Source: Candidatus Harrisonbacteria bacterium (GTDB lineage: Bacteria; Patescibacteriota; Minisyncoccia; UBA6257; WO2-44-18). From it: DNA of 64,000 nucleotides. The stretch is taken from assembly GCA_016182295.1 (NCBI GenBank), contig JACOXP010000006.1, forward strand, positions 9,298-73,297, read 5' to 3'. Positions 2,740-26,088 of the stretch are shown in pieces (position 1 is the stretch's first letter; each line of letters opens with the position of its first letter). The notes beneath the pieces were generated by a model that ran no database searches, was not told the origin of the DNA, and was given only the letters and a program-made list of their open reading frames with translations. A program made the translations under genes and the position numbers.

Positions 2740-2743
2740 AATT

Positions 2744-4496: not shown

Positions 4497-4504
4497 AAAT
4501 TGAC

Positions 4505-6626: not shown

Positions 6627-7603
6627 AAAAAGTTCTCATTACCGGGGCAACCGGATTTATCGGAGGCGCGTTGGTTAAACGTCTTTTAAAAAATAAAAAT
6701 TACAAAATAATTTGCTTGGTGCGGGATTTGAGCAAAGCGGCCAAGCTTAAGGAATTGGGGGCCGAACTTGTTAAATGGGATATGACGGATTCCCAAAACG
6801 TTGAAGATGCTATGCGTAATGCATCGATAGTAATTCATCTGGCGGCGGTTTTGGCGAATAAACACGCGTCCAAAACGGAAATGCGCGCCGTTAACGTTGA
6901 TGGAACAAGAAACATTTTGAAAATTGCTAAACTAATCGGCGCGAAACAGTTTATTTTTTTAAGTTCGGCGCTTTTAAGCTGGCACAGGAGTATTGATTGC
7001 CCCAATGAAGAATCGCCGGTTCTTCCGACTACCGAATACGAAAAGACAAAATTAGAGGCGGAGCGTTTGGTCAAATCCGCTTCTTCTTCGGAGTTTCAAA
7101 CCACGGTAATGAGACCCGGAGTTGTTTACGGTCCCGGAGGCATCGGCTTTTCTCCATTATTCAAAGCTGTTAAAACGGGGAAGTTTTTCTATGTAAATAA
7201 TGGTTCTCACATTTTTGAGCTGACTTTTATTGATGATCTGATTGATGTTATTCTAGCCACCATCGGCAATAACAGCGCCTACGGAGAGACTTTTATTATT
7301 TCCGAACAAAATCCCAAGACCTTTCGGGAATTTACGGAACAAATCGCTAGAACTATCGGGGTGACTCCGCCCAAGCTTAGCATCCCGGCCCCTGTTTTTA
7401 AAATCGCCTGGATGTTTTTATATCCGCTTGAGCTTTTAGGTCTCCCGATTCCGATCAGCGAAAGCACTTTTAAGACCCTTACTTTGCGCCGCGTTTTCGA
7501 TACCACTAAAGCAAAAAAGATGTTAAATTATACAGCGCGAATTTCATTGGAAGAGGGCGTTAAGCAATCAGTCGATTACTATAAAAATATCGGAATTTTA
7601 TGA
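6623..7603 (+). CDS. NAD-dependent sugar epimerase/dehydratase (SDR family)
   Basis: VLITGATGFIGGALVKRL NAD motif; YEKTK catalytic YxxxK. Confidence 0.8.
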   Translation: MKKVLITGATGFIGGALVKRLLKNKNYKIICLVRDLSKAAKLKELGAELVKWDMTDSQNVEDAMRNASIVIHLAAVLANKHASKTEMRAVNVDGTRNILKIAKLIGAKQFIFLSSALLSWHRSIDCPNEESPVLPTTEYEKTKLEAERLVKSASSSEFQTTVMRPGVVYGPGGIGFSPLFKAVKTGKFFYVNNGSHIFELTFIDDLIDVILATIGNNSAYGETFIISEQNPKTFREFTEQIARTIGVTPPKLSIPAPVFKIAWMFLYPLELLGLPIPISESTFKTLTLRRVFDTTKAKKMLNYTARISLEEGVKQSVDYYKNIGIL

Positions 7604-8517
7604 GAAAAGCGTTTATAGATACTCTTTTTGAATTGGCGAGAAAGGACAAAAATATTTTTCTGTTGAATGCAGATTTAGGCTTTTCGGTTTTAGAAAAATT
7701 TAATCAAGCTTACCCCAAACGAGCTATTAACATGGGCATAGCAGAAGCCAATTCTATAGGAACGGCTGCTGGTTTGGCGTTATCCGGAAAAACAGTTTTT
7801 GTTTATTCAATTATTCCTTTTGTGACTTTCCGTGTTCTGGAGCAGATCCGTAATGACGTGGCTATGCAGGAAGCCAATGTTAAAATAGTCGGCATCGGTA
7901 GCGGTTGGAGTTACGGTTCCTTAGGCGCCACCCACCATGCTATAGAAGATATCGCCGTTCTTCGTTCAATACCGGGCATGCGAATTGTCTGTCCGGGTGA
8001 TCCGATAGAAGCGGCAGCGGCCACTAAAGCCATTACCAAAACCAAAGGGCCGTTTTATTTTCGTCTTAACAAAGCGGGAGATCCGATTGTCCATAAAACC
8101 ATTCCAAAATTCCGGATTGGCGAAGCAATTCAAGTTCGGCCCGGAAAGGATCTGACGATCATCACCACCGGCAATGCTCTACCCGGCGGCGCGATCGTCA
8201 GTGACATTTTGTCCGAAGATGGATTAAGCGTTCGATTGATTTCCATGCATACAATTAAACCACTGGACGAAGCCACCGTTAAAAAAGCGGCCAAGGAAAC
8301 CAAGGCAATTTTTACTTTAGAAGATCATAATATTCTTGGAGGATTGGGCAGCGCGGTCGCGGAAATTTTGGCGGAAAATCGATTCGGCGGAGTGTTCCAT
8401 CGCTTTGGCGCGAAAGACGCTTTCACTCATATTGCCGGCCCCCACGATTTTTTGCGGGAGCATCATGGGCTTTCTCCTAAAAATATTGCTAGAGTTATCA
8501 GGCGGAAAATCGCATGA
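7600..8517 (+). CDS. Transketolase, C-terminal (pyrimidine-binding) subunit
   Basis: NMGIAEANSIGTAAGLALSGK motif and C-terminal transketolase domain. Pairs with the N-terminal subunit at 3687-4496. Confidence 0.85.
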   Translation: MRKAFIDTLFELARKDKNIFLLNADLGFSVLEKFNQAYPKRAINMGIAEANSIGTAAGLALSGKTVFVYSIIPFVTFRVLEQIRNDVAMQEANVKIVGIGSGWSYGSLGATHHAIEDIAVLRSIPGMRIVCPGDPIEAAAATKAITKTKGPFYFRLNKAGDPIVHKTIPKFRIGEAIQVRPGKDLTIITTGNALPGGAIVSDILSEDGLSVRLISMHTIKPLDEATVKKAAKETKAIFTLEDHNILGGLGSAVAEILAENRFGGVFHRFGAKDAFTHIAGPHDFLREHHGLSPKNIARVIRRKIA

Positions 8518-9692
8518 AATTATCCGGCTTCAGAATCGGAGATTTTTTGGAATTGCGCGGCTGGAAGCTATTGGAAATCTCTAAGGAAATTCCTTTAATA
8601 ATAAATTTCAATTGTCCGGCGGACGACGGACAGCTGAAAACCATCGCTACCCTGGTCGGCAATTCCGGAAGACAAATACGTATTGGCTGCTGTCCAAACT
8701 GCGGTTATATCGGTTACATAGACAAATTGAGCAAAGATTGGATCAATCGTTTTTATTTGGAAACCTGGGATGATGCCGTAAATCAAGATGTTCAAAAAAA
8801 AGCTCAGAAACTCAAAGAAAAATTAAAAACCGGCTACAGCGGGAAAGAACAGCTTGCTATCTCCGCCATCAAAACTTTGAATATTGATAAAAGCCGTTAT
8901 GTATGCGAGATAGGATGCGGATTCGGCAAATCTTTAAATCAGCTTCGCCGATTGGGCTTTGAAAAATTGGTAGGAATTGAAAATTCTTCTCATCGCGCGG
9001 CAATTGCCGCCAAAGCTTATGGTTTGAAAACTATAGCCGCTCCTTTTGACGAAGCGGCAAAGAATTCGGAGCTTAGCAAACTGGCTCCTTTTAGCCTGAT
9101 TTATTCTCATCACGTTCTTGAGCATGTTTATAATCCGGCGGAGATGATTAGGATCGCTTCTGAATTACAGAAAGAAGAAGATTATCTCGTTACCGTTATC
9201 CCTAATTTTATTGGCGAGCCCTCGGTGGGTGTTCTTGGTTTCTTTCCGCATCTCCATTCTTTCACGGAAACCGCGCTCACCGGTCTTTTAAGGCGTTACG
9301 GATATAAAGTAATAAACAGATCTCTTACTAATGATAGAGAGATCTGTGTTGTCGCTCAAAAAACGCGAAAGGCGATCGCGGCAACGGTTTTGAGGGGAGC
9401 TTATAATCTGGCTTTGGAAAAACTTAAACGCGGATTGGCGTTAGACGGAAATCACATTTCTTTTCCGGCTAGATTTTGGTGGTACGCGAAAAAATCAGAT
9501 CAAGGCGGCTGGAAGAAATACTTTAAGAACCGGTTCTTGGATAAAATTTATTGGAAACTAGCTTCTTTTGGGAGAAAATATAAAGGAACCAGAGTTTTGG
9601 TTGTTGAAAATCTCAATGGTCGCTATAATTCGGAACAAGCTTCGCCTATTGAGATTCAATTTAATGGGGAGATAAAATTATTTTATAAATAA
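8514..9692 (+). CDS. SAM-dependent methyltransferase with N-terminal zinc ribbon (TylC3-like sugar C-methyltransferase candidate)
   Basis: Cys4 ribbon (CPADDG...CCPNCGY) followed by class I MT motif CEIGCGFGKSL and a long C-terminal domain. The architecture matches sugar C-methyltransferases. Confidence 0.6.
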   Translation: MKLSGFRIGDFLELRGWKLLEISKEIPLIINFNCPADDGQLKTIATLVGNSGRQIRIGCCPNCGYIGYIDKLSKDWINRFYLETWDDAVNQDVQKKAQKLKEKLKTGYSGKEQLAISAIKTLNIDKSRYVCEIGCGFGKSLNQLRRLGFEKLVGIENSSHRAAIAAKAYGLKTIAAPFDEAAKNSELSKLAPFSLIYSHHVLEHVYNPAEMIRIASELQKEEDYLVTVIPNFIGEPSVGVLGFFPHLHSFTETALTGLLRRYGYKVINRSLTNDREICVVAQKTRKAIAATVLRGAYNLALEKLKRGLALDGNHISFPARFWWYAKKSDQGGWKKYFKNRFLDKIYWKLASFGRKYKGTRVLVVENLNGRYNSEQASPIEIQFNGEIKLFYK

Positions 9693-9693: not shown

Positions 9694-10602
9694 ATGAAAA
9701 AATATTTTTGGATTTTCCGGTATTGTTGGAAACACTTCAGCAGATTTTTAATGAGACCGTACTATTCAATTAGAACATCTTGGCCTGTGTGGTTCGGCAT
9801 TTTAAATAAAGAGGGGCGGCTATTATACGATCGACATCCCAAAAACCACGATTCTGTTTTGGAAAAAATCATAAAAGAAATAAAAGAAAAAGGCATCGCC
9901 GTTACTCATCTTGACGAATTATTTCCCGGAAGAAATCTTTTGCCGGAATTGCAAAGTTACACAAAAAAACTTGCTGAAACCGCTCAAATAAAAAAAGGCA
10001 AGGAATTTCTAATGGCTCTTTGGGAAACGGCTGGGGTTTTGGATTTAGATAATAGTTTAGTTAAATTATCCCTACAATCAAGATCGCTGGAAGTAGTAAA
10101 CGCTTATATGGAGATGTTTTCCAAGTTCCGCCACGCTTCTTTAAATGTAACAATACCGATGCCGGAGGGATCGTTGGCGATAAAATCACAGCGCTGGCAT
10201 CGCGATCCGGAAGACAAACGGATGTGCAAAATGTTTGTTTATTTAAACGATATTGATGAAGATGCCGGCCCGTTTATTTACATTCCCAAATCTCACCAAG
10301 GAGGAAAATGGAGAGAAATTTTCCCCCAGCGTCCGCCAGTCGGCTACTACCCTCCGGATGGAGCGGTGGAAAAAGTTATCCCCTCAGCCGAAATAAAAGT
10401 TTGTACCGGCCGCGCCGGTACGGTAATATTTGGCGATACCAGCGGTTTGCACAAAGGAGGCTACGCCAAGTCCAAAGAGCGATATATGTTTACGGCTACT
10501 TATTCATCGAAAGCGTCTCTTTGGCAAACATATTATGCGCTGCCGTCAGCCGGTCAATTAACCGAATTAAACCTATTGGCTCGCTACGCGGTTACAAAAT
10601 AG
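9694..10602 (+). CDS. PhyH-like Fe(II)/2-oxoglutarate-dependent dioxygenase
   Basis: WHRDPED ... FIYIPKSH ... GLHKGG resembles the HxD...H facial triad region of phytanoyl-CoA dioxygenase family enzymes. Confidence 0.55.
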   Translation: MKKYFWIFRYCWKHFSRFLMRPYYSIRTSWPVWFGILNKEGRLLYDRHPKNHDSVLEKIIKEIKEKGIAVTHLDELFPGRNLLPELQSYTKKLAETAQIKKGKEFLMALWETAGVLDLDNSLVKLSLQSRSLEVVNAYMEMFSKFRHASLNVTIPMPEGSLAIKSQRWHRDPEDKRMCKMFVYLNDIDEDAGPFIYIPKSHQGGKWREIFPQRPPVGYYPPDGAVEKVIPSAEIKVCTGRAGTVIFGDTSGLHKGGYAKSKERYMFTATYSSKASLWQTYYALPSAGQLTELNLLARYAVTK

Positions 10603-10607
10603 AAGAT

Positions 10608-11966
10608 ATGAAGACAGTTTTTTTGTGCGTGCCCAATTACGTTTTTTCAACAGATCTTCTGCGCACGCGTTATATCGGTTATCTAGCATCCAAATACAAA
10701 GTAGTGGTTTTTATGCCGATGATCGGTCCAGAAGAAGCGAAGCGCGTCGGTTATTTTCATTCTACAAATGTCCAGTATGTAAAGTGGGAATTGGAAGTGC
10801 CAAAATTTTGGAGCATTTTTAAGTTATTCAGAATAGCGGCAATGACCGAGTTCGATTATCTCGAATCGGTCCGACACTTCTATAAACGACCCACTTTCAA
10901 AAACAATTGGCAGAGACGTTTGGTCCGTTTTTTCGCGAAGCCGTTTGGGCAGTTATTGACGGCTGATTTTTTTACAAAACTTGAAAGCCGTTTACACCCT
11001 CGATCTCTTCAATTTGATAAATATCTCAAGCAATTCCAGCCAAGTTTGGTAATCACGGCCACGCCGGGTTTTAATCCTTTTGAAGCAGAAATGATTTTAT
11101 TGGCTAAACGATCGAAACTGCCAACGGCGGCTGTTAATTTTACTTGGGATAATTTGACAACCAACTGCAACCATATTAGAAAAACTGATTATTTGATTGT
11201 TTGGAACGATATTGTTAAAGAGGAAGCGAAGAAAATTCATCACTACGATCTGGCTAAAGTTTTCGTCGCCGGTGTTAACAAGTTCGACCATTATTTTAGA
11301 AAAGAAGGCAAACTTAGTCGTGAGGAATTCTTAAAAAGTAAAAAATTAGACCCCAAAAGAAAGACAATAGTTTTTTGTAGCAAGCCGAAAACCTACGTCG
11401 AGCAATTAGATCACGTTCGCGGCATATTGGAAGCGCGCGAAAAAGGACGTCTAGCCGCCCCCGTTAACCTATTGATCAGGCCTCACCCGCTGGATAATCG
11501 AGATAATTATAAAGAATTTATAAATTTACCGAATGTTTATGTTGATTATTCTGGTAAATCAATGAAGTTTTCCGCCGAATCAGTTTCCAATAAAATTGAG
11601 ATGGACGAGGAGGATTTAATGAATTTGAAATACACCTTGCAATACGGAGATGTGCACCTTCAATATGGATCAACCCTGGCGCTGGAAGCGGCAATTTTTG
11701 ACAAACCAATGGTTAATATCGGTTTTTTGAAAACCCTTAATCATGACACAAGCTATAAGGTAACTCATTTTTGGCCGGTTATTGAGACGGGCGCTTCTCC
11801 AATAGCTAAAACGCCAGAGGAACTTGTTGATTTAACCAATCAATATTTAAAAAACCCGATGTTGCATAAAGAAAATCGCCGACAGCTTTTGGAAAAATTC
11901 GTGGTCCTGCGCGACGGTTTTGCTTATAAACGGAATGTGGATTTCCTGGGAAACGTTTTATCCTAA
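10608..11966 (+). CDS. GT-B-like transferase with HP motif, uncharacterised family (paralog 1 of 3, plus a divergent fourth)
   Basis: Start taken at MKTVF immediately after the upstream stop (the tabulated ORF extends out of frame into the upstream gene). Shares TPGFNPFEAE..AKR..PTAAVNFTWDNLT, RPHPLD and C-terminal GSTLALEAAIFDKP blocks with 19406-20737 and 24358-25743. Confidence 0.6.
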   Translation: MKTVFLCVPNYVFSTDLLRTRYIGYLASKYKVVVFMPMIGPEEAKRVGYFHSTNVQYVKWELEVPKFWSIFKLFRIAAMTEFDYLESVRHFYKRPTFKNNWQRRLVRFFAKPFGQLLTADFFTKLESRLHPRSLQFDKYLKQFQPSLVITATPGFNPFEAEMILLAKRSKLPTAAVNFTWDNLTTNCNHIRKTDYLIVWNDIVKEEAKKIHHYDLAKVFVAGVNKFDHYFRKEGKLSREEFLKSKKLDPKRKTIVFCSKPKTYVEQLDHVRGILEAREKGRLAAPVNLLIRPHPLDNRDNYKEFINLPNVYVDYSGKSMKFSAESVSNKIEMDEEDLMNLKYTLQYGDVHLQYGSTLALEAAIFDKPMVNIGFLKTLNHDTSYKVTHFWPVIETGASPIAKTPEELVDLTNQYLKNPMLHKENRRQLLEKFVVLRDGFAYKRNVDFLGNVLS

Positions 11967-11993: not shown

Positions 11994-13571
11994 ATGACTT
12001 TTCGAGAAATTCAGAATTCTGTTTTTCGACTGATGGAAAATCCGGGCGCGACCGTATCCGATCACTTGTCGATCGCGAATCAGCTGGAAGACAGCAAAAA
12101 AGAAAAACCGGAATACTTCCGCGGCATTAAAGCCGCTTTTTTGAGCAACTTTACCATTAAGGGATTGCCGGAGATTTTTAGAACGCGGGCAATTTTCCAC
12201 AATGTCTGGGCGGATGTTTATCTTGGCCCCTATGATCAATGCGCTCAGGAAATTCTTGATAAAAAAAGCGGCCTGTATAAATTCCAGCCGGATTTAATTT
12301 ATTTTCTTTTCGACGCCGACGGCGAAAAGGCAAATCATTACAAAGAACTAGCCAGCCAACTTTCTGGCAAGGTGATGCTGATGGACAGTAATCAAATAAA
12401 AGCGGTCGTCGGTAATTATTGGCAAACCAAATATAAAGAGATGGGAGATTTCAGCGTGGCGCCAGAAGGATTTTCTACACTAGCCGATTATTTAATGAAA
12501 GAAACAATCGCCGTGAGCGGCGCTACCAAAAAATGTTTGGTGTTGGACCTTGATAATACGTTGTGGAAAGGAGTAATTGGTGAAGACGGCCTTGAGGGAA
12601 TAAAACCAGATCAAGATTTTCAACGTCAGGCCCTTTATCTTTATGAGACTGGAGTAATTCTGGCGATAAACAGTAAAAATAATTCAGAAGACGTGCTGGA
12701 AGCAATTGAAAAGCATCCGAAAATGATTCTACGAAAAAATCATTTTGCCGCTTGGCGGATCAATTGGCAGGATAAGGCAACCAATATGAAAGAATTGACG
12801 GATGAGTTAATGCTGGGGGCCGACAGTTTTGTTTTTGTCGATGATAGTCCGTTCGAGAGGAATATCGTGGCCAATAAATTTCCGGAAGTAGCCATTCTAA
12901 GCCCTGAAAGCCTGAAAAATTATCCCGGCTTCCATAAATTAAAAATTACCGATGAAGATCGACGTCGCGGTCAAATGTATGCCGAGGAGCAAATCCGCAG
13001 AAGCGCCCGATCTTCATTAAATAACGTGGAAGATTTTATAAAGTCATTGAATTTGGAAGTTACTATTCGAGAAATAAAATCGGACAGTCCCATTATCCCG
13101 CGTATCGCCCAAATGGCTCAAAAGACCAACCAGTTTAATATGACGACCAAGCGTTGGAGTGAAGATGAAATCAGGACTCTGCTTAATGAACGGCACAATT
13201 ATAAAATGTGGGCTGTTGAGGCAATGGATCGTTTTGGCGATTACGGTATTATAGGTTTCTTGGCCGCAAAGCCCGTAGTTGATAAAGTTTGGGAAATTGA
13301 TAATTTTTTAATGAGCTGCCGTATTCTGGGACGAGGAATAGAAAAGACGCTGTTGGCTCGCGTGATTGAAGAAGCGAATCGGAGCAAAATCAGCAAACTT
13401 ATAGGGGTTTTTATTCCGACCAAAAAAAATAAGGCGCTTTGTGAAGATTTCTATCCAAATAACGGTTTTAATAGTGGGCTTGTCTACAAATCCGCCGATT
13501 CTGTAAACTTTATTCATCACCTAAACAGCCCCTACCCATATCCAGAAAACATAAAAGTAAATTTCTCTTAA
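11994..13571 (+). CDS. FkbH-like HAD-superfamily (subfamily IIIC) phosphatase/acyltransferase
   Basis: LVLDLDNTLWKGVIGEDG (HAD motif I DxDxT), FVFVDDSPFERN, and a C-terminal GNAT-like region. Architecture of FkbH-type glyceryl-ACP loading enzymes. Confidence 0.7.
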   Translation: MTFREIQNSVFRLMENPGATVSDHLSIANQLEDSKKEKPEYFRGIKAAFLSNFTIKGLPEIFRTRAIFHNVWADVYLGPYDQCAQEILDKKSGLYKFQPDLIYFLFDADGEKANHYKELASQLSGKVMLMDSNQIKAVVGNYWQTKYKEMGDFSVAPEGFSTLADYLMKETIAVSGATKKCLVLDLDNTLWKGVIGEDGLEGIKPDQDFQRQALYLYETGVILAINSKNNSEDVLEAIEKHPKMILRKNHFAAWRINWQDKATNMKELTDELMLGADSFVFVDDSPFERNIVANKFPEVAILSPESLKNYPGFHKLKITDEDRRRGQMYAEEQIRRSARSSLNNVEDFIKSLNLEVTIREIKSDSPIIPRIAQMAQKTNQFNMTTKRWSEDEIRTLLNERHNYKMWAVEAMDRFGDYGIIGFLAAKPVVDKVWEIDNFLMSCRILGRGIEKTLLARVIEEANRSKISKLIGVFIPTKKNKALCEDFYPNNGFNSGLVYKSADSVNFIHHLNSPYPYPENIKVNFS

Positions 13572-13575
13572 AATT

Positions 13576-14016
13576 ATGAAATCCAATCCTACTTTACAGT
13601 TAAGCAATTTGAATTACGAAGGCATAAAGATCGATCAGGAATTTTCCTTCGAACGCTTGGTGGACAAGCAATTAGTCGATGAATTTGCCAAATTAAGCGG
13701 CGATTTCAGTCCTCTGCACATGGATGATTCTTACGCCAAAACGACTAAATTCGGCGAACGGATCGCCCATGGGATGCTTTTGGCCAGTTTTTTCTCTGCT
13801 CTGGTGGGGATGTTGTGTCCCGGGAAGAAAGGTTTATATTTATCCCAAACAGCAAATTTTAAAAACCCGTGCCGTTTGGGAGACAAACTTATTGTTATGG
13901 GCAAGATAAAATCAAAATCGGATTCAACCAGAACATTGGAATTAAGCACAATAATTAAGAATACTAACGGGAAAATTTTGGTGGACGGGTCGGCAATGGT
14001 AAAATTTTTAGAGTAA
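13576..14016 (+). CDS. MaoC-like (R)-specific hotdog-fold dehydratase
   Basis: FAKLSGDFSPLHMD...AHGM is the MaoC dehydratase signature; about 146 aa single hotdog. Confidence 0.75.
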   Translation: MKSNPTLQLSNLNYEGIKIDQEFSFERLVDKQLVDEFAKLSGDFSPLHMDDSYAKTTKFGERIAHGMLLASFFSALVGMLCPGKKGLYLSQTANFKNPCRLGDKLIVMGKIKSKSDSTRTLELSTIIKNTNGKILVDGSAMVKFLE

Positions 14017-14019
14017 TTT

Positions 14020-14721
14020 ATGGATCTTAAATTAAAAGGCAAAGTAGTTCTTATATTGGGAGGAACCGGAGGGATCGGCTCTGCGATAACGGCGGAATTC
14101 CAGAAAGAAGGCGCTTCGGTTTGCGCCCATGGGCGTTCGGGCAATTACGCTACTGATCTGACGTCTGAAGACGCGATGGCTGGGCTGGTGGAAAAGGCAA
14201 TGAAACAATTTGGGCGGGTTGATACGGTGATCAATTCTCTATCGACTCCGGTAAAACACGGAGCTTTAGAGTCAAAAAAATGGTCCGATTTTCAGGACCA
14301 AATTGATGTTCAAACACGCTCGTTTGTTGATTTATTGCCGCTGGTTGTGCCGACGATGAAGAGGCAGGGTGGCGGCCGAATAATAAATATTTTAACCACT
14401 TACGTGATTGGGCAGCCCCCGTCCGGGTTGGCTGATTACGTAACTGCCAAATACGCGCTATTGGGCCTGACTAAAGCGGCAGCCAGAGAATTGGGTAAAT
14501 ATCACATAACGGTAAACGCCGTTTCCCCGAGTTTTATCCGCAATAAATTTACCGATCGGATACCGGAAAAATTTGACGAATTGTTAATCAGCCAGACTCC
14601 GCTTGGTCGTTTAGCAACTCCGGAAGATGTGGCGAGAACCGTTTTATTTCTTGCTTCAGAAAAAGCCGAGTTTATTACCGGTGAGAATATCATTGTTGCC
14701 GGTGGCCAAACAATGGATTAA
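14020..14721 (+). CDS. Short-chain dehydrogenase/reductase (FabG-like ketoreductase)
   Basis: LGGTGGIGSAI cofactor motif; YVTAKYAL catalytic YxxxK. Confidence 0.85.
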   Translation: MDLKLKGKVVLILGGTGGIGSAITAEFQKEGASVCAHGRSGNYATDLTSEDAMAGLVEKAMKQFGRVDTVINSLSTPVKHGALESKKWSDFQDQIDVQTRSFVDLLPLVVPTMKRQGGGRIINILTTYVIGQPPSGLADYVTAKYALLGLTKAAARELGKYHITVNAVSPSFIRNKFTDRIPEKFDELLISQTPLGRLATPEDVARTVLFLASEKAEFITGENIIVAGGQTMD

Positions 14722-14732
14722 TTTTAATTTTT

Positions 14733-14960
14733 ATGAAGACACTTGAAGAAATAATTGCCGGCGTTTTAACGATTGATGTCAAATCGGTCAATGATCAGAC
14801 CAGTCCGGAAAATACTCCCGGCTGGGATTCTTTTAACAGTATTCTTTTGGTTAGCGAAGTTGAAAAAAATTTCAACGTCAAATTTGAATTGGATGAGGTA
14901 GTGGGATTGAAAAATGTCGGGGATTTTCGGGCTCTCTTGAAAAAACGCGGCGCTTTTTAG
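14733..14960 (+). CDS. Acyl carrier protein
   Basis: 75 aa, acidic, with GWDSFNSILLVSEVE containing the DS(F/L) phosphopantetheine attachment serine context. Confidence 0.7.
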   Translation: MKTLEEIIAGVLTIDVKSVNDQTSPENTPGWDSFNSILLVSEVEKNFNVKFELDEVVGLKNVGDFRALLKKRGAF

Positions 14961-14962
14961 GA

Positions 14963-16066
14963 ATGAAAATCGAATTTCTGGATAAAAAGGATCGGAGCTT
15001 GCTAGAACAATTTTATCGGGAAAGCTATTCTCCAAAATATATTTTGCTCAGAAAAGATTTTTTTGATTGGTACACGGTTAAAAATCCGAATTACCGAGAT
15101 CGATTCCCGGATGGACAACTTCCAGTTCTGGTTCTTAGAGACGATAAAAGGATCTTGGCTCATTGGGTTTGCGGAGCGCAAAAATTCAATTTTTTTGGGA
15201 GAAACTTTTCTATGTTCTGGACTTCTAATTGGATGGTTCATCCGGATTTTCGCCATCGTGGTTTGGGTGCTCTTATAACTAATTTTTTGCAAAAGCTGCC
15301 GGTGGATGTATTGGCGGCAAATATGGTGACCAAAGAATCAAGGAATGTCTTAGAGCGACTTAATTATCAATATCAAGACCTTAATCGTTATTTAGCGGTT
15401 TTTTCTGACGAAGCTTTAAATTTAGTTAACCACCGAAATGATCCAAGAGTTCGGGATCGTTTGCGGGAAGTTATTATCCCCGCTAAGAATGGCGATTTTG
15501 CCAATATTGAGCCGGTTTCCGCCTTTGCAGAAGACTATAACGAGTTTTGGCACAGCGGTTTCGCGCCCGTAGCGCAAGGCGGAGCGCGCGACGCCGATTT
15601 TTTAAACTGGCGATATCCGCAAGCTCCGTTTTTTGAATATCGCTGTTTTGTGGTTAAAGACAATCAAAAAAAGATAAAAGGGGTGATTGTTTTACGCATT
15701 GATGAGATTCGAAACACTAACTACCGAGCTTGTCGGATGTTGGAATTTTTTACTGATCCGGAATGGGCAAAACTAGCCGCCGAATTTGTAATCAGCTATG
15801 CCCGGCGGGAAAAATGCGTTTTTCTTGACTATTACAATTTGTTTTCCGGTTTTGATTCATTTTTCGCGGAAGCCGGAATTTTAAAGAATGATTCCGTATT
15901 ATCAACGGAAATTCCAAGATTGACTCAACCGGTAGCTCATGAGAATTGGTTTATTAACGCGGTTTTTTGGAAGAGGAATCCTGAAATTTCCAACGAAACT
16001 TTCTTTAATTTCGACAAATGGTATACTACCTCCGGCGATTCAGATCAAGATCGAAAAAATTTTTAA
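14963..16066 (+). CDS. GNAT-fold-like putative acyltransferase, paralog A (candidate carrier-protein-dependent transferase)
   Basis: Paralogous to 27807-28892: shared N-terminal block, the GNAT-like HPDFRHRGLG versus KKDLRSLGYG, and a near-identical C-terminal WYTT.SD.DQDR tail. Sits directly after an ACP gene. Confidence 0.5.
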   Translation: MKIEFLDKKDRSLLEQFYRESYSPKYILLRKDFFDWYTVKNPNYRDRFPDGQLPVLVLRDDKRILAHWVCGAQKFNFFGRNFSMFWTSNWMVHPDFRHRGLGALITNFLQKLPVDVLAANMVTKESRNVLERLNYQYQDLNRYLAVFSDEALNLVNHRNDPRVRDRLREVIIPAKNGDFANIEPVSAFAEDYNEFWHSGFAPVAQGGARDADFLNWRYPQAPFFEYRCFVVKDNQKKIKGVIVLRIDEIRNTNYRACRMLEFFTDPEWAKLAAEFVISYARREKCVFLDYYNLFSGFDSFFAEAGILKNDSVLSTEIPRLTQPVAHENWFINAVFWKRNPEISNETFFNFDKWYTTSGDSDQDRKNF

Positions 16067-16972
16067 ATGATTTCAAATAGCGATCAGTATATTGTCGTCA
16101 ATTATCATTTCGTTTTAAATCCCGAAGATCGTCCGGATTTAGGCGGAATTTTTCCGTGCCTGCCGGAGACTTTTTCTAATCAGCTAAAGTGGCTTAAAAA
16201 GAATTTTACTTTGACAGCCGTGGATGAAGTTTATAGAGCCGCCCGTGAAAAACGGTCCGGCCGTTTTTGCGCGTTAACCTTTGACGATGGCACTCGAGAC
16301 CATCTGGAAATAGTTTTCCCGTTGCTGCGCGAACAGCGAGCGCCGGGAACATTTTTTGTCATAACGGGTCCGTTTGAGGGGAAAATGCCCACTTCGCATA
16401 AAATCTATAGATTAAGATCAGAGCTGACAATCCCCGAATTAATAGATCATTATAACAATTTTTCTAGAAATCCTATGCCCACCGACAAATTTATCGATCC
16501 AACCGAGCGGTATGATGATTTGCTTACATCAAATTTTAAAACCACGATAGCGCGTTTGCCGCACTCCGTGGCGAATGAATTTATGAACGTGCTATTTTCT
16601 CAATTGGGGTGGGACGAAAATCTTGAGGCCAGAAAGCTTTTTTTAATGCCGGAAGATATTGTTAAAATGAAGTCGGGAGGAATGAAATTCGGAGCGCACG
16701 GTGACAGTCACAATCCCTTTCCGGTTTTAAAAGATGATGAAGTGGCAAACGAACTTAGGAATTCAAAACGAATACTCGTTGATCTTTTAGGAGAAGAAGT
16801 TCATTTATTTTCTTATCCGCATGGACAGTATCGCCGCCAACACCCAAAATTAATAGAGGATTTCGGTTTCCACTATGCCGCCACGACCGAAAGACGATCA
16901 ATCAACGGAATCGAAAATAAATTTTTGCTGCCTCGTTTTGACGCCAACGATCTAAAAGATATTCAAAAATGA
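16067..16972 (+). CDS. Polysaccharide deacetylase (CE4, NodB homology domain)
   Basis: TFDDGTRD and HGDSH motifs of CE4 deacetylases. Confidence 0.8.
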   Translation: MISNSDQYIVVNYHFVLNPEDRPDLGGIFPCLPETFSNQLKWLKKNFTLTAVDEVYRAAREKRSGRFCALTFDDGTRDHLEIVFPLLREQRAPGTFFVITGPFEGKMPTSHKIYRLRSELTIPELIDHYNNFSRNPMPTDKFIDPTERYDDLLTSNFKTTIARLPHSVANEFMNVLFSQLGWDENLEARKLFLMPEDIVKMKSGGMKFGAHGDSHNPFPVLKDDEVANELRNSKRILVDLLGEEVHLFSYPHGQYRRQHPKLIEDFGFHYAATTERRSINGIENKFLLPRFDANDLKDIQK

Positions 16973-17904
16973 AGTACTCTATAAACGATAAACATATAGT
17001 AATTAATTATCATTACGTGGAAAATCCCAGTCGAAACTGGTCCGGTATCCATCCCTGCTCAATTGATGAGTTTAATCGCCAAGTCAAATTCCTATCCGAA
17101 AACTACAAATTTGGCTCTCTGGTTGACGTTTTTCAGGCGGCCAAAAATAACAACGCGGAAAGGGTATGCGCGATAACTTTTGATGACGGTTTACGCGATC
17201 AATATGAAAATACCCTCCCGATTCTTAAAAAAGGCTCAGCTACGGCGACTTTTTTCATCATCACCGCGGCTCTAGAAGGCCGCTTGCCGCCCGCTCACCG
17301 CATTCATGTTTTGTTATCAAAAATCGCGATAAACGACCTAATTAACCTTTTTAATGAATATTTAAAGGAATTTTATTCGGATCTCCAAAAACAATATTTT
17401 ATTCCGAAAGATCGGCGTTTAACTCAACGCCGCCTTCATGAGGACATTCCAACGGCTAATTTTAAAGAAACGCTAATAATGTTGCCGGAGGATATCAAAG
17501 CCCAGTTTTTACGGTATTGTTTTAAAAAACAAGGACTGGATTCGGAACGGCTTTCTCGTCAAATATTTATGGGGGCGGGAGAGATTCGGGAATTACAGAG
17601 AGCGGGTATGCAAATTGGCGCTCACACCCATCAACATTACGCCTTAGACACAATGAATCCGGAAGCAATCAAAAATGACATCAATCTTAATAAAGCCGGC
17701 TTGGACTCGGTTTTGGGATTTGTGCCAGAGGTGTTTTCCTACCCTCATGGGCGCTATCAGCCGGCGGCCGTATCTATTTTGCGAGATGAAAAATTCAAAC
17801 ACGCTGTCACAATAGAGAAACGTGGAGTATCCGGTTCAGACGACCCGTTGTTAATGCCTCGGTATGACACGAACGATCTCCGAGACTTTTTAAATTTACG
17901 ATAA
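16969..17904 (+). CDS. Polysaccharide deacetylase (CE4), tandem paralog
   Basis: ITFDDGLRD, HTHQH motifs; clear paralog of the preceding gene. Confidence 0.8.
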   Translation: MKYSINDKHIVINYHYVENPSRNWSGIHPCSIDEFNRQVKFLSENYKFGSLVDVFQAAKNNNAERVCAITFDDGLRDQYENTLPILKKGSATATFFIITAALEGRLPPAHRIHVLLSKIAINDLINLFNEYLKEFYSDLQKQYFIPKDRRLTQRRLHEDIPTANFKETLIMLPEDIKAQFLRYCFKKQGLDSERLSRQIFMGAGEIRELQRAGMQIGAHTHQHYALDTMNPEAIKNDINLNKAGLDSVLGFVPEVFSYPHGRYQPAAVSILRDEKFKHAVTIEKRGVSGSDDPLLMPRYDTNDLRDFLNLR

Positions 17905-17907: not shown

Positions 17908-18603
17908 ATGAAAAAGGAAGCAAACAAAATTTTTGAACGCAATAAATCTGTTTGGGATAATCTCAAAATTTCTTCCATGAACTTGGACGTCAATTTCGTG
18001 CGATGCCAAAAATATCTTTTCCCGGAGGGCCGAAAGAAAAAACTGCTTTACATCGGTTTTGGGGAGGGACAGAATCTGGAGTATTTGGCAAAAGCGGGAT
18101 TTGATGTTTATGGCACGGAGATCGCGGAGAGCCGCGTCGGAGAAACCAAAAAACGACTCAAGAAAAATAAGCTCAAGGCGCGTCTGTATCTTGTTAAATC
18201 CAGCGCGTTGCCATTCCAGGACGGATTTTTCGATATTGTTGTGGCTTGGCAATCCATTTACTACAACGATGAAAACGGACTTAAAGCAATCCTTAAGGAA
18301 ATTAACCGAGCGTTAAAGCCAAAAGGGCAATTTCTTTCATCAATGATATCCACAAAGCAAAATCTTCTTTGTAGTAAAAAAATTGGATTGTCTACTTATC
18401 GTCCCGCAAAAAAAACTGGGCAACAGAACTGCACAATTTTTTGCTTTAAGAACAAGAACCAAATACGCAAACTCTATGGCGACTTTGCGAGAATTAAAAT
18501 AGGTTTTTACAGCTCCTATTTATTCAAGAGCCGAAACTTTCACTATGTGATTTATTGCGTCAAAACAAAACATTCCCTAAAGGAGTTACATAATTTACAA
18601 TGA
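17908..18603 (+). CDS. Class I SAM-dependent methyltransferase
   Basis: LLYIGFGEGQNLEYLAKAGFDVYGTE (motif I) and ALKPKGQF (post-I). Confidence 0.7.
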   Translation: MKKEANKIFERNKSVWDNLKISSMNLDVNFVRCQKYLFPEGRKKKLLYIGFGEGQNLEYLAKAGFDVYGTEIAESRVGETKKRLKKNKLKARLYLVKSSALPFQDGFFDIVVAWQSIYYNDENGLKAILKEINRALKPKGQFLSSMISTKQNLLCSKKIGLSTYRPAKKTGQQNCTIFCFKNKNQIRKLYGDFARIKIGFYSSYLFKSRNFHYVIYCVKTKHSLKELHNLQ

Positions 18604-19409
18604 GTAAATTAGAATCAGACATTTCACTGGTTATTATTACCGCCAATGCATTGAGGCATAAATTTGTAACCAATCAGTTAATTAAAGATTTTCAGGTTAA
18701 AGGAGTTATTTCCGAAATCAAGCGTCCATTAAGGCAAGGCGACACGGTGGAGGAAAATGAGATTATTGCTAAGCACAGCCGTGAGCGTGATGAAAAAGAA
18801 ATCGAATATTTTGGCGCTGAGAAAGACTTTAATCTTCCGACAGAGAAAATAATGAGGGTAGACTATGAGGAAGCTAATAGCCAAAAAGTATACGACTGGA
18901 TTAAAAAATTGAATCCCAATTACGTAGTTCTCTTTGGCAGTGGCATCGTGCGCGATCCGCTTTTAAGTGAATATAAGGGACGAATCATCAATATGCACCT
19001 TGGCCTCTCTCCCTATTATCGTGGTTCGGCGACCACCTTTTGGCCATTTGTGGAAAAAGAACCGGAATGTATCGGCGTTACCGTCCATTTAGCGGTTTTG
19101 AAAGTAGACGCGGGATCAATTTTGGGGCAATCTCGGCCGGAAATTAACCCTGACGACGGCGCCCATGATATAGGCTACAGAAATATTATCGCCGGGGCCG
19201 AACTTCTAACGAGATGTATCCGCGAATACAGCGCTGGAAAAATTCAACCGAAACCCCAGCGTCTCGATATCGGAAAGGTTTTTAAACACAAAGATTTCAA
19301 CGCGCAATCGGTGTTAAAGATGAAAGAAAATTTTTCAAACGGGATGATTGAGCTTTATTTAGAAAATAAACCCCAGCGTGACGCTCAATACCCGATTATT
19401 GAGGCATGA
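18600..19409 (+). CDS. Formyltransferase-domain protein (sugar N-formyltransferase candidate)
   Basis: VVLFGSGIVRDPLL...IINMHLGLSPYYRGSATTFW matches the N10-formyl-THF formyltransferase core (Fmt/PurN/ArnA-N-like). Confidence 0.7.
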   Translation: MSKLESDISLVIITANALRHKFVTNQLIKDFQVKGVISEIKRPLRQGDTVEENEIIAKHSRERDEKEIEYFGAEKDFNLPTEKIMRVDYEEANSQKVYDWIKKLNPNYVVLFGSGIVRDPLLSEYKGRIINMHLGLSPYYRGSATTFWPFVEKEPECIGVTVHLAVLKVDAGSILGQSRPEINPDDGAHDIGYRNIIAGAELLTRCIREYSAGKIQPKPQRLDIGKVFKHKDFNAQSVLKMKENFSNGMIELYLENKPQRDAQYPIIEA

Positions 19410-20737
19410 AGACGATCTTTCTTTTTGTCCCGCCGAGTCTGATTTCGGATCTTTTACGCACCCCGTATTTGAAGCATGCGGCAGAAAAATTTCGGGTTAT
19501 AGTTTTTACTAGAACAGTTGATCAAGAAACCGGCGAGCGGGAATATCTTAAATCGCCAAACGTGATTTACCATCGTTGGAAAACCCATAACTCCAAATTG
19601 CTGGGAAGGTTCAAGTTTTTCCGAATAGACGGAATCCACCAATTTAATTATTTGAGGGGAGTCGCCCAGTATTATCAAAAAAACATTTTTCTTTCCGATC
19701 GCCGGGCTCGACTAATTAGATTTTTGACCAGGCCTTTTGGAAAAATTTTGACAACCGATTTTTTTACCACGGTTGAAAAATTTTTAATAAAAGTGCCGAG
19801 GGAATTTCGAGACGCCGTAAAAAAATATCAACCATCCGCGGTAGCCGTTTCCACCCCGGGAATGACTGTTTTCGAAGCCGAAGCGATCTTGATGGCCAAA
19901 CGATTGGGGGTGCCGACCGCGGCCGTTAATTTCAATTGGGATAATCTTACTTTGCAGAAAGCCCACTTAATGCGGAGATGTGATTTCTTGCTGGTTTGGA
20001 ACGATATCATCAAGGAACAGGCGATCAAAATTCACAAATATCATCCGAATAAAGTGATGGCAACAGGCGTAATGCGTTTTGATCACTACTTTCAGAAAGG
20101 AAAAGAAGAAATTAGCCGTGATGAGTTTTTGAAAACCAAAGGTTTGAATCCTAATTTGAAAACCATTCTAATTATTACCGAAAGCAAGAATTACTCATTT
20201 CAGTTAAAATGGTTTCGCAAATTGTTCGAACTCCGCGAGAGAGGGAGTATTCCCTATGCCAATGTTTTTATTAGAATTCATCCCCACGATACGCCAGAAG
20301 CTTATAAAGAGTTCTCTGGGCTACCGGATGTTAATGTGGAATTAGCCGGGCAACCGATGGTTAATCAAGCTGACCGAATTGAAATGCGCGTTTCCGATTT
20401 AGAAAATCAAAAACTGACTATTAAACACACGGATATTAATTTCAACTATTGCTCTACAATGTCCTTGGAATCGATGATATTTGACAAACCGGTAGTGATT
20501 TTTTATGAACCAGGTCATTACGACACCGAAAAGACTCATTTCAAACCCATTCTGGACGTTGGTTCTGCAAAACTGGTTAGAAGCCCAGAAGAGCTTGCTT
20601 TAACTATCAAACAATACTTGACTAATCCGGGGTTAGATAGAGAAAAACGCAAGCTCGTCCTTGATCGCTATATGCCATTTAGGGATGGTCAATCCCCAAA
20701 ACGCAGCGTCGAAGCGCTGGCAAAAATACTAAAATAA
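19406..20737 (+). CDS. GT-B-like transferase with HP motif (paralog 2)
   Basis: TPGMTVFEAEAILMAKRLGVPTAAVNFNWDNLT, RIHPHD, CSTMSLESMIFDKP; paralog of 10608-11966. Confidence 0.6.
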   Translation: MKTIFLFVPPSLISDLLRTPYLKHAAEKFRVIVFTRTVDQETGEREYLKSPNVIYHRWKTHNSKLLGRFKFFRIDGIHQFNYLRGVAQYYQKNIFLSDRRARLIRFLTRPFGKILTTDFFTTVEKFLIKVPREFRDAVKKYQPSAVAVSTPGMTVFEAEAILMAKRLGVPTAAVNFNWDNLTLQKAHLMRRCDFLLVWNDIIKEQAIKIHKYHPNKVMATGVMRFDHYFQKGKEEISRDEFLKTKGLNPNLKTILIITESKNYSFQLKWFRKLFELRERGSIPYANVFIRIHPHDTPEAYKEFSGLPDVNVELAGQPMVNQADRIEMRVSDLENQKLTIKHTDINFNYCSTMSLESMIFDKPVVIFYEPGHYDTEKTHFKPILDVGSAKLVRSPEELALTIKQYLTNPGLDREKRKLVLDRYMPFRDGQSPKRSVEALAKILK

Positions 20738-25746: not shown

Positions 25747-26088
25747 ATGGTCATGAAAGGAATCGGAATCGATATAATCAAAATAAATCGTTTTAGAAGA
25801 ATCCCTTATAAGAAGCGACCGTCTTTTTATAAAAATATATTTACTAATCTCGAAATTGAATATTGTCTTGGTAAAAAAGATCCTTACCCGAGTTTTGCCG
25901 CGAGGTTTGCCGCAAAGGAGGCAATCGTCAAAGCGGTTGGTGGGACTATTTATAAAGCGAGACAAATCGAGATTCGTAAAGGCAGTTCTGGCCGGCCGAT
26001 GGTGAAGCTTCAAGGTCGAAAAAAGATACTGCTCTCTTTATCTCATGACGGAGAATACGCCGCCGCTATTGCTCTATGGTTAAACTAA
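25747..26088 (+). CDS. acpS: Holo-[acyl-carrier-protein] synthase (4'-phosphopantetheinyl transferase)
   Basis: GIGIDIIKINRF...FAAKEAIVKA is the canonical AcpS signature; 113 aa. Confidence 0.8.
   Translation: MVMKGIGIDIIKINRFRRIPYKKRPSFYKNIFTNLEIEYCLGKKDPYPSFAARFAAKEAIVKAVGGTIYKARQIEIRKGSSGRPMVKLQGRKKILLSLSHDGEYAAAIALWLN

Follow-up and report, generated by a model that had tools for sequence, protein, structure and literature searches.

Two putative cassettes for carrier-protein-dependent editing of sugar N-acyl groups in Candidatus Harrisonbacteria

We propose that Candidatus Harrisonbacteria, a CPR bacterium with a tiny genome, has two cassettes (A and B) for carrier-protein-dependent editing of sugar N-acyl groups in a glycan locus that spans over 50 kb. 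The locus lies within the window, the whole stretch of 64,000 nucleotides analysed here. In cassette A, an FkbH-like loader, a MaoC-type dehydratase, a short-chain dehydrogenase-like protein (SDR), the acyl carrier protein ACP1 and the tandem-GNAT protein GNL_A would make lactyl-ACP and use it for N-acylation, a reading to which we assign a probability of roughly 0.6. If true, it suggests a widespread and undescribed route by which the N-acetyl group of sialic-acid-like sugars is replaced with other acyl groups. The gene and domain identities, catalytic residue conservation, folds, gene fusions and synteny on which we draw were established with computational tools.

The five open reading frames of cassette A, which the preliminary description had delimited as a module at 11994–16066, are found at exactly those positions on the plus strand, separated from one another by 4, 3, 11 and 2 nt and from the following gene by 0 nt. 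The functional unit is, however, bigger than these coordinates: that description did not include a pair of CE4 deacetylase genes (16067–17904), a phosphopantetheinyl transferase gene (25747–26088) and a parallel cassette (26076–28892). For comparison we surveyed loci of the tandem-GNAT (GNL) family from many phyla, with counts taken over 78 or 79 loci, 48 of which have full flanks; ketosynthase (KS) and FabD homologues were sought in the window and 85 related loci. Cultured bacteria with such loci include Psychrobacillus sp. NPDC096623 (L023), Paenibacillus luteus (L034) and Cohnella panacarvi (L032).

The first gene (11994–13571, plus strand) encodes a long-form FkbH-like protein with FkbH_N, a HAD-IIIC phosphatase and a C-terminal acyltransferase domain carrying Cys442; its predicted structure has three domains, the last with a GNAT fold. 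The FkbH identity suggested earlier holds up in profile searches, where both TIGR01686 (FkbH; 275.9 bits, cut-off 146.65, model positions 2–320 of 323) and TIGR01681 (HAD-IIIC; 60.1 bits, cut-off 35.75) score above cut-off. Comparison of the protein with a zwittermicin-cluster homologue at the ZmaN position (L086), with 60 further homologues and with a PKS FkbH domain shows little or no variation at D185, D187 and T189 (DxDxT), S227, K261, D283–D284, the TNQxN block (378–382) and S441-C442-R443, and the phosphatase and acyltransfer residues, whose loss would speak against the module, are kept. For OzmB, zwittermicin and tetronomycin it is established that the FkbH mechanism leads from 1,3-bisphosphoglycerate (1,3-BPG) to a glyceryl-S-enzyme and on to glyceryl-ACP (PMC9057759, PMC3679948). 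The window protein is predicted to capture 1,3-BPG on Cys442, use its HAD domain to strip off the 3-phosphate and hand the D-glyceryl unit to ACP1.

The next three genes, all on the plus strand, also match their earlier assignments. The MaoC-type (hot-dog) dehydratase (13576–14016; PF01575, 63.6 bits, cut-off 27) has a GDxSPLH hydratase motif and is predicted to convert glyceryl-ACP to pyruvoyl-ACP by loss of the 3-OH through an enol-pyruvoyl intermediate. The FabG-like SDR (14020–14721; PF13561, 159 bits; PF00106, 103 bits), with GGTGGIG and YVTAK motifs, is the predicted ketoreductase that would reduce the 2-keto group to give lactyl-ACP. ACP1 (14733–14960; PF00550 PP-binding, 29.4 bits, cut-off 20.8) carries its serine in a WDS motif, and the extended form WDS(L/F)N is shared by ACP1 and ACP domains fused to tandem-GNAT homologues.

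These proteins are collinear with the loading module of a Streptomyces anulatus trans-AT PKS (L087), the N-terminal order of which is MaoC(9–99)-SDR(288–480)-FkbH-ACP(1137–1202)-KS. The MaoC proteins are 55% identical over the motif, with good alignment limited to 40 residues, and the SDR matches the PKS KR region at ~25% identity (E 3e-7), a generic SDR-level similarity. Lactyl-ACP was reportedly obtained from an FkbH-type loading module in work by He and colleagues in 2014, and such modules are recorded as yielding lactyl-ACP (PMC7901079, citing Zhang 2011). Fused PKS loading modules of the MaoC-SDR-FkbH-ACP design are known, and for this reason we favour lactyl over glyceroyl and O-methyl-glyceroyl, the two other products initially listed. 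Among related loci, MaoC occurs in 29 of 43 FkbH-type loci versus 0 of 20 with an AMP-ligase only, a MaoC–SDR fusion lies directly upstream of FkbH in 17 (for example L038:6590-7783), and the FkbH-ACP-MaoC-SDR-GNAT-CE4 arrangement recurs in L092.

There is some chance, although a small one, that the C3 acyl group is delivered unprocessed or otherwise processed, as N-glyceroyl, O-methylated glyceroyl or N-pyruvoyl, with MaoC and SDR having another role or just one of them being active. N-glyceroyl and di-O-methylglyceroyl pseudaminic acids are documented chemically (PMC5378307, PMC3068675), and the cassette is flanked by methyltransferases (17908–18603 in the window; a TylF-type enzyme in L001). 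Verrucomicrobial loci have MaoC and lack SDR, while a close relative (L047) has both loaders, both ACPs and one tandem GNAT, with neither MaoC nor SDR. We know of no natural N-lactyl nonulosonic acid. MaoC is missing from 14 of the 43 FkbH loci, which would then make a glyceroyl product, and therefore no single product can be assigned to the family as a whole. In the window itself, however, MaoC and SDR sit between FkbH and ACP with gaps of 3–11 nt, MaoC is strictly tied to FkbH, and the same four-part set makes up the fused PKS loading module, all of which argues for lactyl.

GNL_A (14963–16066, plus strand) belongs to an uncurated family of more than 1000 clusters at 50% identity (E<=1e-30), and profile searches of the window proteins found no Pfam or NCBIfam model that covers it. 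Its predicted fold is a tandem GNAT with the RxxGxG motif kept. The family includes natural ACP-GNL, X-ACP-GNL, FkbH-GNL (1068 aa) and adenylase-GNL (866 aa) fusions, and a loader (FkbH or AMP-ligase) lies within 6 kb of the GNL gene in 60/78 loci (77%). The fusions lend weight to the proposal that the GNAT-like protein accepts its acyl group from an ACP, and we predict that GNL_A passes the group from ACP1 to a freed sugar amine. The closest folds are N-myristoyltransferase, Eis and MshD (sequence identity 8–13%), which are all N-acyltransferases, and use acyl-CoA where GNL is predicted to use acyl-ACP.

Directly downstream, two paralogous CE4 'polysaccharide deacetylase' genes are encoded on the plus strand at 16067–16972 (PF01522, 75 bits; TFDDG and HxxxH motifs) and 16969–17904 (PF01522, 83 bits), both with metal and base motifs kept. 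A sequence check found no signal peptide or TM segment in either protein, which places them in the cytoplasm. Enzymes of the CE4 family may also act as O-deacetylases. The first is predicted to unmask the acceptor amine by de-N-acetylating a nonulosonic (sialic-acid-type) sugar or its hexosamine precursor, and the second, whose orthologue is the sole CE4 gene of L047, could possibly serve cassette B. Of 79 GNL loci, 68 (86%) carry a CE4 gene, and in 49/78 it lies no more than 600 bp from the GNAT gene. Where the preliminary description allowed N- or O-acylation, N-acylation after de-N-acetylation is thus favoured, because a cytoplasmic CE4 protein is the most constant neighbour, and O-acylation is less so.

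It is improbable that the tandem GNAT instead O-acylates a sugar or polymer hydroxyl, giving O-lactyl or O-glyceroyl esters rather than amides, with the CE4 proteins as O-deacetylases or unrelated trimming enzymes. The CE4 family does contain O-acetyl esterases, cassette B resembles DltA/DltC, whose end products are esters, and FkbH-ACP units can supply O-acylation, judging from S. meliloti pSymB, where an MBOAT O-acyltransferase adjoins both an ACP and an FkbH-like protein beside genes for capsule export. Against this, the nearest folds all belong to N-acyltransferases, the proteins are cytoplasmic, and NeuC/NeuB chemistry inherently involves no acyl group other than N-acetyl, which explains the deacetylase requirement.

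The neighbours named earlier, several methyltransferases among them, are all found in the window, and the four enzymes described next are encoded on its plus strand. A NeuC-type hydrolysing UDP-GlcNAc 2-epimerase (28902–30071; TIGR03568, 362 bits, cut-off 236) and a CMP-nonulosonate cytidylyltransferase (30061–30792; PseF model, 198 bits, just under the 206 cut-off) presumably supply the acceptor sugar. The NeuB-family nonulosonate synthase (38721–39842; PF03102, 255 bits) scores 283 bits with the NeuB model and 228 with PseI, both under the equivalog cut-offs. The D-2-hydroxyacid dehydrogenase (34353–35309; PF02826, 190 bits), PGDH- or hydroxypyruvate-reductase-like (PGDH model 232 bits, under cut-off), co-occurs with the cassette in 23/79 loci, mostly beside NeuA. 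NeuA, NeuC and NeuB are found in 46, 42 and 41 of 79 loci, respectively, at least one of them in 37 of the 48 full-flank loci (77%), and compact examples are L005 (FkbH-GNL-CE4-NeuB-NeuA-NeuC) and L003. No KS or FabD homologue was detected in the window, in agreement with the initial impression that no polyketide synthase was in sight, or in any of the 85 related loci (0/85), and the linkage in relatives is to sugar rather than fatty-acid genes. Sugar acylation with an ACP-bound C3 unit, as first suggested, is therefore supported by these sequence comparisons.

NeuA/B/C are missing within 10 kb from 11 of the 48 full-flank loci, which means that some acceptors are not nonulosonic acids. It is nevertheless doubtful that the general acceptor is another repeat-unit amino sugar (GlcN/ManN or a 6-deoxy-hexosamine, given dehydratase and epimerase genes at 1855–7603), with the Neu linkage reflecting shared glycan islands. 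The window has many further sugar-tailoring genes, and an aminotransferase was looked for in it and not found; yet L005, L009 and L003, all very compact, hold little beyond loader, GNAT, CE4 and NeuB/A/C, and the 77% co-occurrence far exceeds chance. It is very hard to credit that the module is left over from lipid or polyketide metabolism and has no part in glycan decoration: FabG, MaoC and ACP belong to classical families of the fatty-acid type and FabG-like entries are the best NCBIfam names, but every score is under the FabG equivalog cut-offs, ketosynthase and malonyltransferase are lacking from the window and the 85 loci, and the genes lie within a glycan operon in conserved synteny with Neu genes.

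Cassette B and the adjoining AcpS gene (25747–28892, plus strand) parallel cassette A. The AcpS-type 4'-phosphopantetheinyl transferase (25747–26088; PF01648, 60.8 bits; TIGR00556, 73 bits, cut-off 45), found in 17/79 related loci, is predicted to convert ACP1 and ACP2 to their holo forms. The cassette B loader is a DltA-like amino-acid adenylating enzyme (26076–27608; TIGR01733, 346 bits, cut-off 317; DltA models, 292 bits) with an FDLS (A4) motif containing Asp215. It is followed by the DltC-like carrier ACP2 (27586–27816; PF00550, 26.8 bits; LDS serine motif; DltC models, 35 and 26 bits, under cut-offs) and GNL_B (27807–28892), a predicted aminoacyl transferase with 23% full-length identity to GNL_A (E 2e-27). 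Among 149 GNL_B homologues, several have an N-terminal ACP fusion; an AMP-binding loader is near 7/7 orthologues above 220 bits, with FkbH too in two of these loci. Cassette B would thus follow an equivalent route with an amino acid, DltA-like activation and a DltC-like carrier.

As in D-alanylation, cassette B pairs an adenylating enzyme with a small carrier, and DltA/DltC models are its best named matches; its scores are, however, under the DltA and DltC equivalog cut-offs, DltB (MBOAT) and DltD are absent, and a cytoplasmic tandem GNAT follows the carrier. The glyceramido sugar of Neisseria is made with the ATP-grasp enzyme PglB2, a mechanism unlike that of the cassettes. Cassette A shares four of its parts (MaoC dehydratase, SDR, long-form FkbH with FkbH_N, ACP) with the DH*-KR*-FkbH-ACP loading modules of bryostatin (BryA), FR901464 (Fr9) and S. 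anulatus, the FkbH of the last being 36% identical to ours (E 1e-71). The predicted chemistry of these modules runs from 1,3-BPG through glyceryl-ACP and pyruvoyl-ACP to lactyl-ACP (PMC7901079). In the PKSs the acyl-ACP enters polyketide extension, whereas the window has separate genes, no downstream ketosynthase and predicted transfer by a tandem GNAT in a sugar locus. Stand-alone FkbH/OzmB/ZmaN of methoxymalonyl- and hydroxymalonyl-ACP pathways likewise combine a HAD-IIIC phosphatase, a Cys-dependent glyceryl transfer domain and a dedicated ACP, and have every catalytic residue in common with the window protein (PMC9057759, PMC3679948), but are ~360 aa long without FkbH_N. After them come FkbK/FkbI-type dehydrogenases and an FkbG methyltransferase, all absent from the window. 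Glycerate-decorated pseudaminic acids (Pse5Am7Gra of T. forsythia, di-O-methylglyceroyl-Pse of C. jejuni 11168) are nonulosonic acids whose C3 N-acyl group derives from glycerate. In C. jejuni 11168 the FkbH-domain gene cj1302 lies inside the flagellin glycosylation locus (PMC7099621, PMC3068675, PMC5378307); 'a candidate gene for the Gra modification remains elusive' (PMC6120980), and we found no published gene-to-function link for either decoration in the accessible literature.

From sequence and context we infer the chemistry from glyceryl loading to acyl transfer, the lactyl product, N- over O-acylation and the acceptor. Rhizobial Nod-factor synthesis uses the CE4 deacetylase NodB, the N-acyltransferase NodA and the dedicated ACP NodF. 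The window differs in three respects, as NodA lies outside the GNATs, the acyl group in Nod-factor synthesis is a fatty acid for which the ketosynthase NodE is used, and this group is attached to a chito-oligosaccharide; the NodB model gives weak matches to the CE4 proteins of the window (E 3e-4 and 6e-4). The logic is nevertheless the same, and a NodB/NodA/NodF-like scheme, in which a CE4 enzyme would free the sugar amine and an N-acyltransferase re-acylate it from a carrier protein, appears to be the best reading of the locus.

The five open reading frames of the proposed acyl-loading cassette lie on the forward strand exactly where the preliminary description had placed them: an FkbH-like gene (11994–13571), a MaoC-type dehydratase (13576–14016), an SDR (14020–14721), an acyl carrier protein (ACP1; 14733–14960) and a 367-aa tandem-GNAT protein (GNL_A; 14963–16066), with gaps of 4, 3, 11 and 2 nt. 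Dominating the window is one long forward-strand glycan operon that extends from position 20 to roughly 37.6 kb; up to about 47.5 kb it is followed by NeuB, a Wzy/TPR protein, a nucleotidyltransferase, Wzx and an initiating sugar transferase. The 10 kb preceding the window encode further methyltransferases, glycosyltransferases and TagB-like proteins. Between the long operon and NeuB (38721–39842) stands an ECF-type sigma-70 factor on the reverse strand (38082–38657), which may regulate the glycan locus locally. Outside this locus, 55904–59104 encodes a likely large surface protein of 1066 aa that contains repeats of the Lamin Tail Domain.

The assignment of the first gene to the FkbH family holds in profile searches, with TIGR01686 (275.9 bits against 146.65, covering model positions 2–320 of 323) and TIGR01681 (60.1 bits against 35.75) both above their curated cut-offs. 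Two FkbH reference sequences were recovered by tblastn of plasmids: a gene in the zwittermicin cluster of pBMB400, which from its gene order we take to be ZmaN, and a domain within a Streptomyces anulatus trans-AT PKS. When these were aligned jointly with the window protein and its homologues from nonulosonic acid (NulO) loci, D185, D187, S227, K261, D283 and D284 of HAD motifs I–IV (DxDxT, S/T, K, DD) were invariant and T189 nearly so; the motif residues are also conserved over 61 sequences, where K261 and T189 are invariant. T378-N379-Q380-x-N382 is invariant or nearly so in the joint alignment and conserved in the 61 homologues, and S441-C442-R443, which holds the Cys of the C-terminal acyl-transfer domain, is invariant in both alignments. 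The phosphatase and acyl-transfer residues (DxDxT, S227, K261, DD and SCR), whose loss would have spoken against the loading function first proposed, are thus present. A structure model predicts a GNAT fold for the C-terminal domain, and a PDB sequence search with FkbH returned 3slr as its sole match. The accepted mechanism has been described for OzmB, and zwittermicin and tetronomycin are cited as using it too: 1,3-bisphosphoglycerate yields a phosphoglyceryl-S-enzyme, which is dephosphorylated before transfer to an ACP (PMC9057759, PMC3679948); the glyceryl-S-enzyme thioester intermediate has been described for OzmB (PMC9057759). In the window the ACP1 gene lies 1.1 kb downstream of FkbH in the same operon.

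MaoC and the SDR both pass their Pfam cut-offs. MaoC has a hot-dog domain (PF01575, 63.6 bits) with the catalytic Asp and His motif (SGDFSPLH), while the SDR (PF13561, 159 bits) carries the cofactor motif GGTGGIG and the catalytic motif YVTAK and scores under the FabG equivalog cut-offs. The N-terminus of the S. anulatus PKS (comparison locus L087) reads MaoC(9–99)-SDR(288–480)-FkbH-ACP(1137–1202)-KS, and the four parts of this lactyl loading module, which there form one polypeptide, are adjacent separate genes in the window. The FkbH sequences share 36% identity (E 1e-71) and the MaoC sequences 55% over 40 residues, with the GDxSPLH catalytic block common to both (SGDFSPLH aligning with TGDRSPLH); the SDRs align collinearly, though weakly. 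Whereas the PKS module has a downstream KS for its starter unit, scans of the window and of 85 loci returned neither KS nor FabD, which suggests that the window unit works like this loading module without being a PKS module. A fatty-acid or polyketide reading of the cassette is rejected on the same grounds, and the initial remark that no polyketide synthase is in sight is borne out by the lack of any ketosynthase or malonyltransferase in the window.

He et al. are said to have reported in 2014 that DH* turns glyceryl-ACP into pyruvoyl-ACP, which KR* then reduces to lactyl-ACP. For the FkbH loading modules found in trans-AT PKSs, formation of lactyl-ACP from 1,3-BPG is on record (PMC7901079, citing Zhang et al. 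2011). In the set of 78 related loci, MaoC accompanies 29 of the 43 FkbH-type loci versus none of the 20 with an adenylating loader only; in 17 loci a single MaoC-SDR fusion protein lies directly upstream of FkbH, and another comparison locus, L092, repeats the set as FkbH-ACP-MaoC-SDR-GNAT-CE4. Together with the likeness to the PKS module, these patterns lead us to favour lactyl-ACP as the predicted end product in this window, while FkbH loci without MaoC would yield glyceroyl. An SDR acting beside FkbH without MaoC in Acidobacteriota was considered and rejected, as Pfam shows these proteins to be MaoC-SDR fusions. At 34353–35751 a D-2-hydroxyacid dehydrogenase resembling PGDH/hydroxypyruvate reductase precedes a small cupin; the pair comes after NeuA in comparison loci L018 and L040, and the dehydrogenase is present in 23 of 79 loci. 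It might act as the pyruvoyl reductase where the SDR is absent.

A second cassette in the same operon pairs a different loader with a paralogous transferase. Here AcpS (25747–26088) precedes an amino-acid adenylating enzyme (26076–27608; TIGR01733, 346 bits against 317; FDLS motif), a DltC-like carrier (ACP2; 27586–27816) and the 361-aa GNL_B (27807–28892, forward strand). Both carriers exceed the PF00550 cut-off and keep the serine attachment motif, WDS in ACP1 and LDS in ACP2, and AcpS places a PPTase at hand. Although the adenylating enzyme is DltA-like, it reaches 292 bits against an equivalog cut-off of 560, and the carrier, although DltC-like, reaches 35 against 68; profile searches found neither DltB (MBOAT) nor DltD in the window. 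In L047 (7980–12928), a close relative, AcpS-adenylase-ACP2-GNAT_B-FkbH-ACP1 form one run, with both loaders and both ACPs present, one CE4 gene, and the second GNAT, MaoC and SDR absent.

GNL_A and GNL_B are full-length paralogues (23% identity, E 2e-27) of a tandem-GNAT family that has no Pfam or NCBIfam model and comprises more than 1000 sequence clusters: a profile search returned 1045 clusters at 50% identity with E<=1e-30. GNL_A itself gave sub-threshold Pfam GNAT matches only and no NCBIfam match, and a PDB sequence search with its 367 residues gave nothing meaningful. Its predicted structure, from a 108-sequence alignment, has a pLDDT of 95.6 and a pTM of 0.93; the GNAT fold and the pantetheine-pyrophosphate motif (Q/R)xxGxG/A are both present, and alignments of the family show the motifs RxxGxG, (F/Y)LNWRY and an invariant C-terminal DQDR. 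Among the homologues listed, about ten are ACP-GNAT fusions; one FkbH-GNAT fusion (1068 aa), one adenylase-GNAT fusion (866 aa) and one X-ACP-GNAT fusion also occur. These fusions and the synteny with loader genes indirectly support acyl-ACP, and not acyl-CoA, as the predicted donor. One homologue, on an Escherichia albertii plasmid, is an orphan for which no informative gene context was found.

The neighbourhoods of the family were surveyed with one genome per species. This yielded 196 relatives, 80 loci were retained, and neighbours were counted with the window proteins as phmmer queries. The kept loci span Acidobacteriota, Verrucomicrobiota, Planctomycetota, Patescibacteria, Chloroflexota, Bacillota (Paenibacillus, Cohnella, Lysinibacillus and Psychrobacillus) and Proteobacteria, as well as Nanoarchaeota and Bathyarchaeia among the archaea. 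A CE4 deacetylase gene is present in 68 of 79 loci and lies no more than 600 bp from the GNAT in 49 of 78; an ACP is found in at least 50. A loader, FkbH or AMP-ligase, occurs within 6 kb of the GNAT in 60 of 78 loci (38 FkbH, 20 ligase and 2 both). NeuA, NeuC and NeuB are found in 46, 42 and 41 loci, respectively, and at least one Neu gene in 37 of the 48 loci having at least 9 kb on either side, leaving about a quarter of these full-flank loci without one. Given also the lack of KS and FabD, relatives of the module are linked to sugar rather than fatty-acid genes, as had been anticipated. Compact orders include FkbH-GNAT-CE4-NeuB-NeuA-NeuC (L005) and NeuB-NeuC-NeuA-2HADH-GT2-FkbH-ACP::GNAT-MaoC-CE4 (L003).

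In the window, GNL_A is followed by two CE4 genes (16067–16972 and 16969–17904; PF01522, 75 and 83 bits) that keep the metal and base motifs, TFDDG plus HGDSH or HTHQH (HxxxH), and neither protein has a signal peptide or TM segment. The most economical reading resembles the NodB/NodA/NodF logic of Nod factor synthesis, in which a sugar is deacetylated and then re-acylated from a carrier. A cytoplasmic CE4 would remove the N-acetyl group, which comes from UDP-GlcNAc and is carried through NeuC/NeuB chemistry, and the tandem GNAT would re-acylate the freed amine from its dedicated carrier, cassette A supplying a C3 hydroxy-acyl and cassette B an aminoacyl group. The editing may take place on a nucleotide sugar, a free sugar, a CMP-sugar or a lipid-linked glycan, and the linkage may be N or O. 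Caveats to this model come from the reduced gene complement of L047, from the full-flank loci without Neu genes and from the pairing of FkbH-ACP with an MBOAT in Sinorhizobium meliloti described below. Extended across the loci, the model would amount to a previously undescribed, phylum-spanning system of sialic-acid N-acyl editing. In it, cytoplasmic CE4 would strip the N-acetyl of a neuraminic-type sugar, and re-acylation by a new tandem-GNAT family would draw on a carrier loaded by FkbH (glyceroyl, pyruvoyl or lactyl) or by a DltA-like enzyme (aminoacyl), a tentative proposal to which we give about four chances in ten. As to the acceptor, the NeuC encoded with a cytidylyltransferase at 28902–30792 passes its equivalog cut-off (362 bits against 236), NeuB scores 283 against 400, and PseF is the nearest model for the cytidylyltransferase (198 against 206). 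The two GNATs and two CE4 enzymes could also point to a 5,7-diamino NulO with both N-acyl groups swapped, but searches of the window and the 10 kb upstream returned no DegT-type aminotransferase, so this alternative, while conceivable, is not supported.

Under the N-acyl editing reading, TagB-like proteins are candidate NulO transferases. Five TagB/Glyphos_transf-like proteins belong to one locus, at 10308–11966, 19406–20737 and 24358–25743 in the window and at 1315–2661 and 6487–7842 in the L088 stretch. The family, which may represent a nonulosonate transferase, accompanies the cassette in 39 of 79 loci, and for one member the model of the BFO_1060 family glycosyltransferase gives a weak match (73 bits against a cut-off of 200).

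The window also encodes two paralogous membrane proteins, each with about 640 residues and roughly 12 TM segments (20743–22626 and 32359–34329). Both are beside GT2 or epimerase genes and have no Pfam match, and a homologue is kept in L001, L018 and L047; together with a YfhO-like protein (20–1120) they are candidates for GT-C-type transferases or polymerases. A second unusual sugar-tailoring block (1855–9692) holds PseB-like and LegB-like dehydratases, two methyltransferases, an NAD epimerase, an Orn/DAP-decarboxylase-like PLP enzyme (5319–6626) and a transketolase split into N (3687–4496) and C (7600–8517) halves, which adjoins the cassette again in L031 and L047; a two-carbon branch transfer may be at work here. 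The CE4 genes and a methyltransferase are closely followed by an ArnA/Fmt-like formyltransferase (18600–19409), a hint of a further, N-formylated sugar; present in one of 79 related loci, the formyltransferase falls outside the core cassette.

The exotic N-acyl groups of NulOs are numerous and influence recognition by phages, lectins and the immune system, and the genes installing them are mostly unknown. If the proposal is right, N-lactyl, N-glyceroyl or N-aminoacyl NulOs would occur on organisms from CPR bacteria and DPANN archaea through to Paenibacillus, and the missing gene logic of glycerate-type NulO decorations would be supplied. The locus defines a set of genes that can be put to the test, namely loader, carrier, tandem GNAT and CE4, and brings with it a rule for prediction: FkbH alone would give glyceroyl, FkbH with MaoC and SDR lactyl, and a DltA-like loader aminoacyl. 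CPR bacteria are generally reported to lack fatty-acid synthesis; the present one keeps ACPs and AcpS inside a surface-glycan locus, which is relevant to how episymbionts present themselves to hosts.

Our literature search found nothing tying FkbH, ACP, tandem GNAT or CE4 to NulO acylation, the broad query being swamped by unrelated matches. For Pse5Am7Gra of Tannerella forsythia the glyceroyl transferase is given as unknown, with no candidate gene (PMC6120980, PMC5378307). In Campylobacter jejuni, the FkbH-domain gene cj1302 lies within the flagellin glycosylation locus (PMC7099621), and flagellin of a strain holding it bears di-O-methylglyceroyl-Pse (PMC3068675); neither species is among the 80 loci kept in the genome scan. 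The parts of the cassette are of known kinds; their combination and the tandem-GNAT family lie outside Pfam, NCBIfam and the literature found. The cassette would represent PKS-style starter-unit chemistry reused outside polyketide synthesis. A contrast is provided by Sinorhizobium meliloti pSymB (L089, 5090–10125), where an MBOAT, an unnamed protein, an ACP and a 628-aa FkbH-like protein adjoin the rkp capsule export genes. There the FkbH-like protein and ACP are paired with the MBOAT instead of a tandem GNAT, which indicates that FkbH-ACP units can feed other acyltransferases and suggests a different, extracytoplasmic route of O-acylation fed by an FkbH-loaded carrier.
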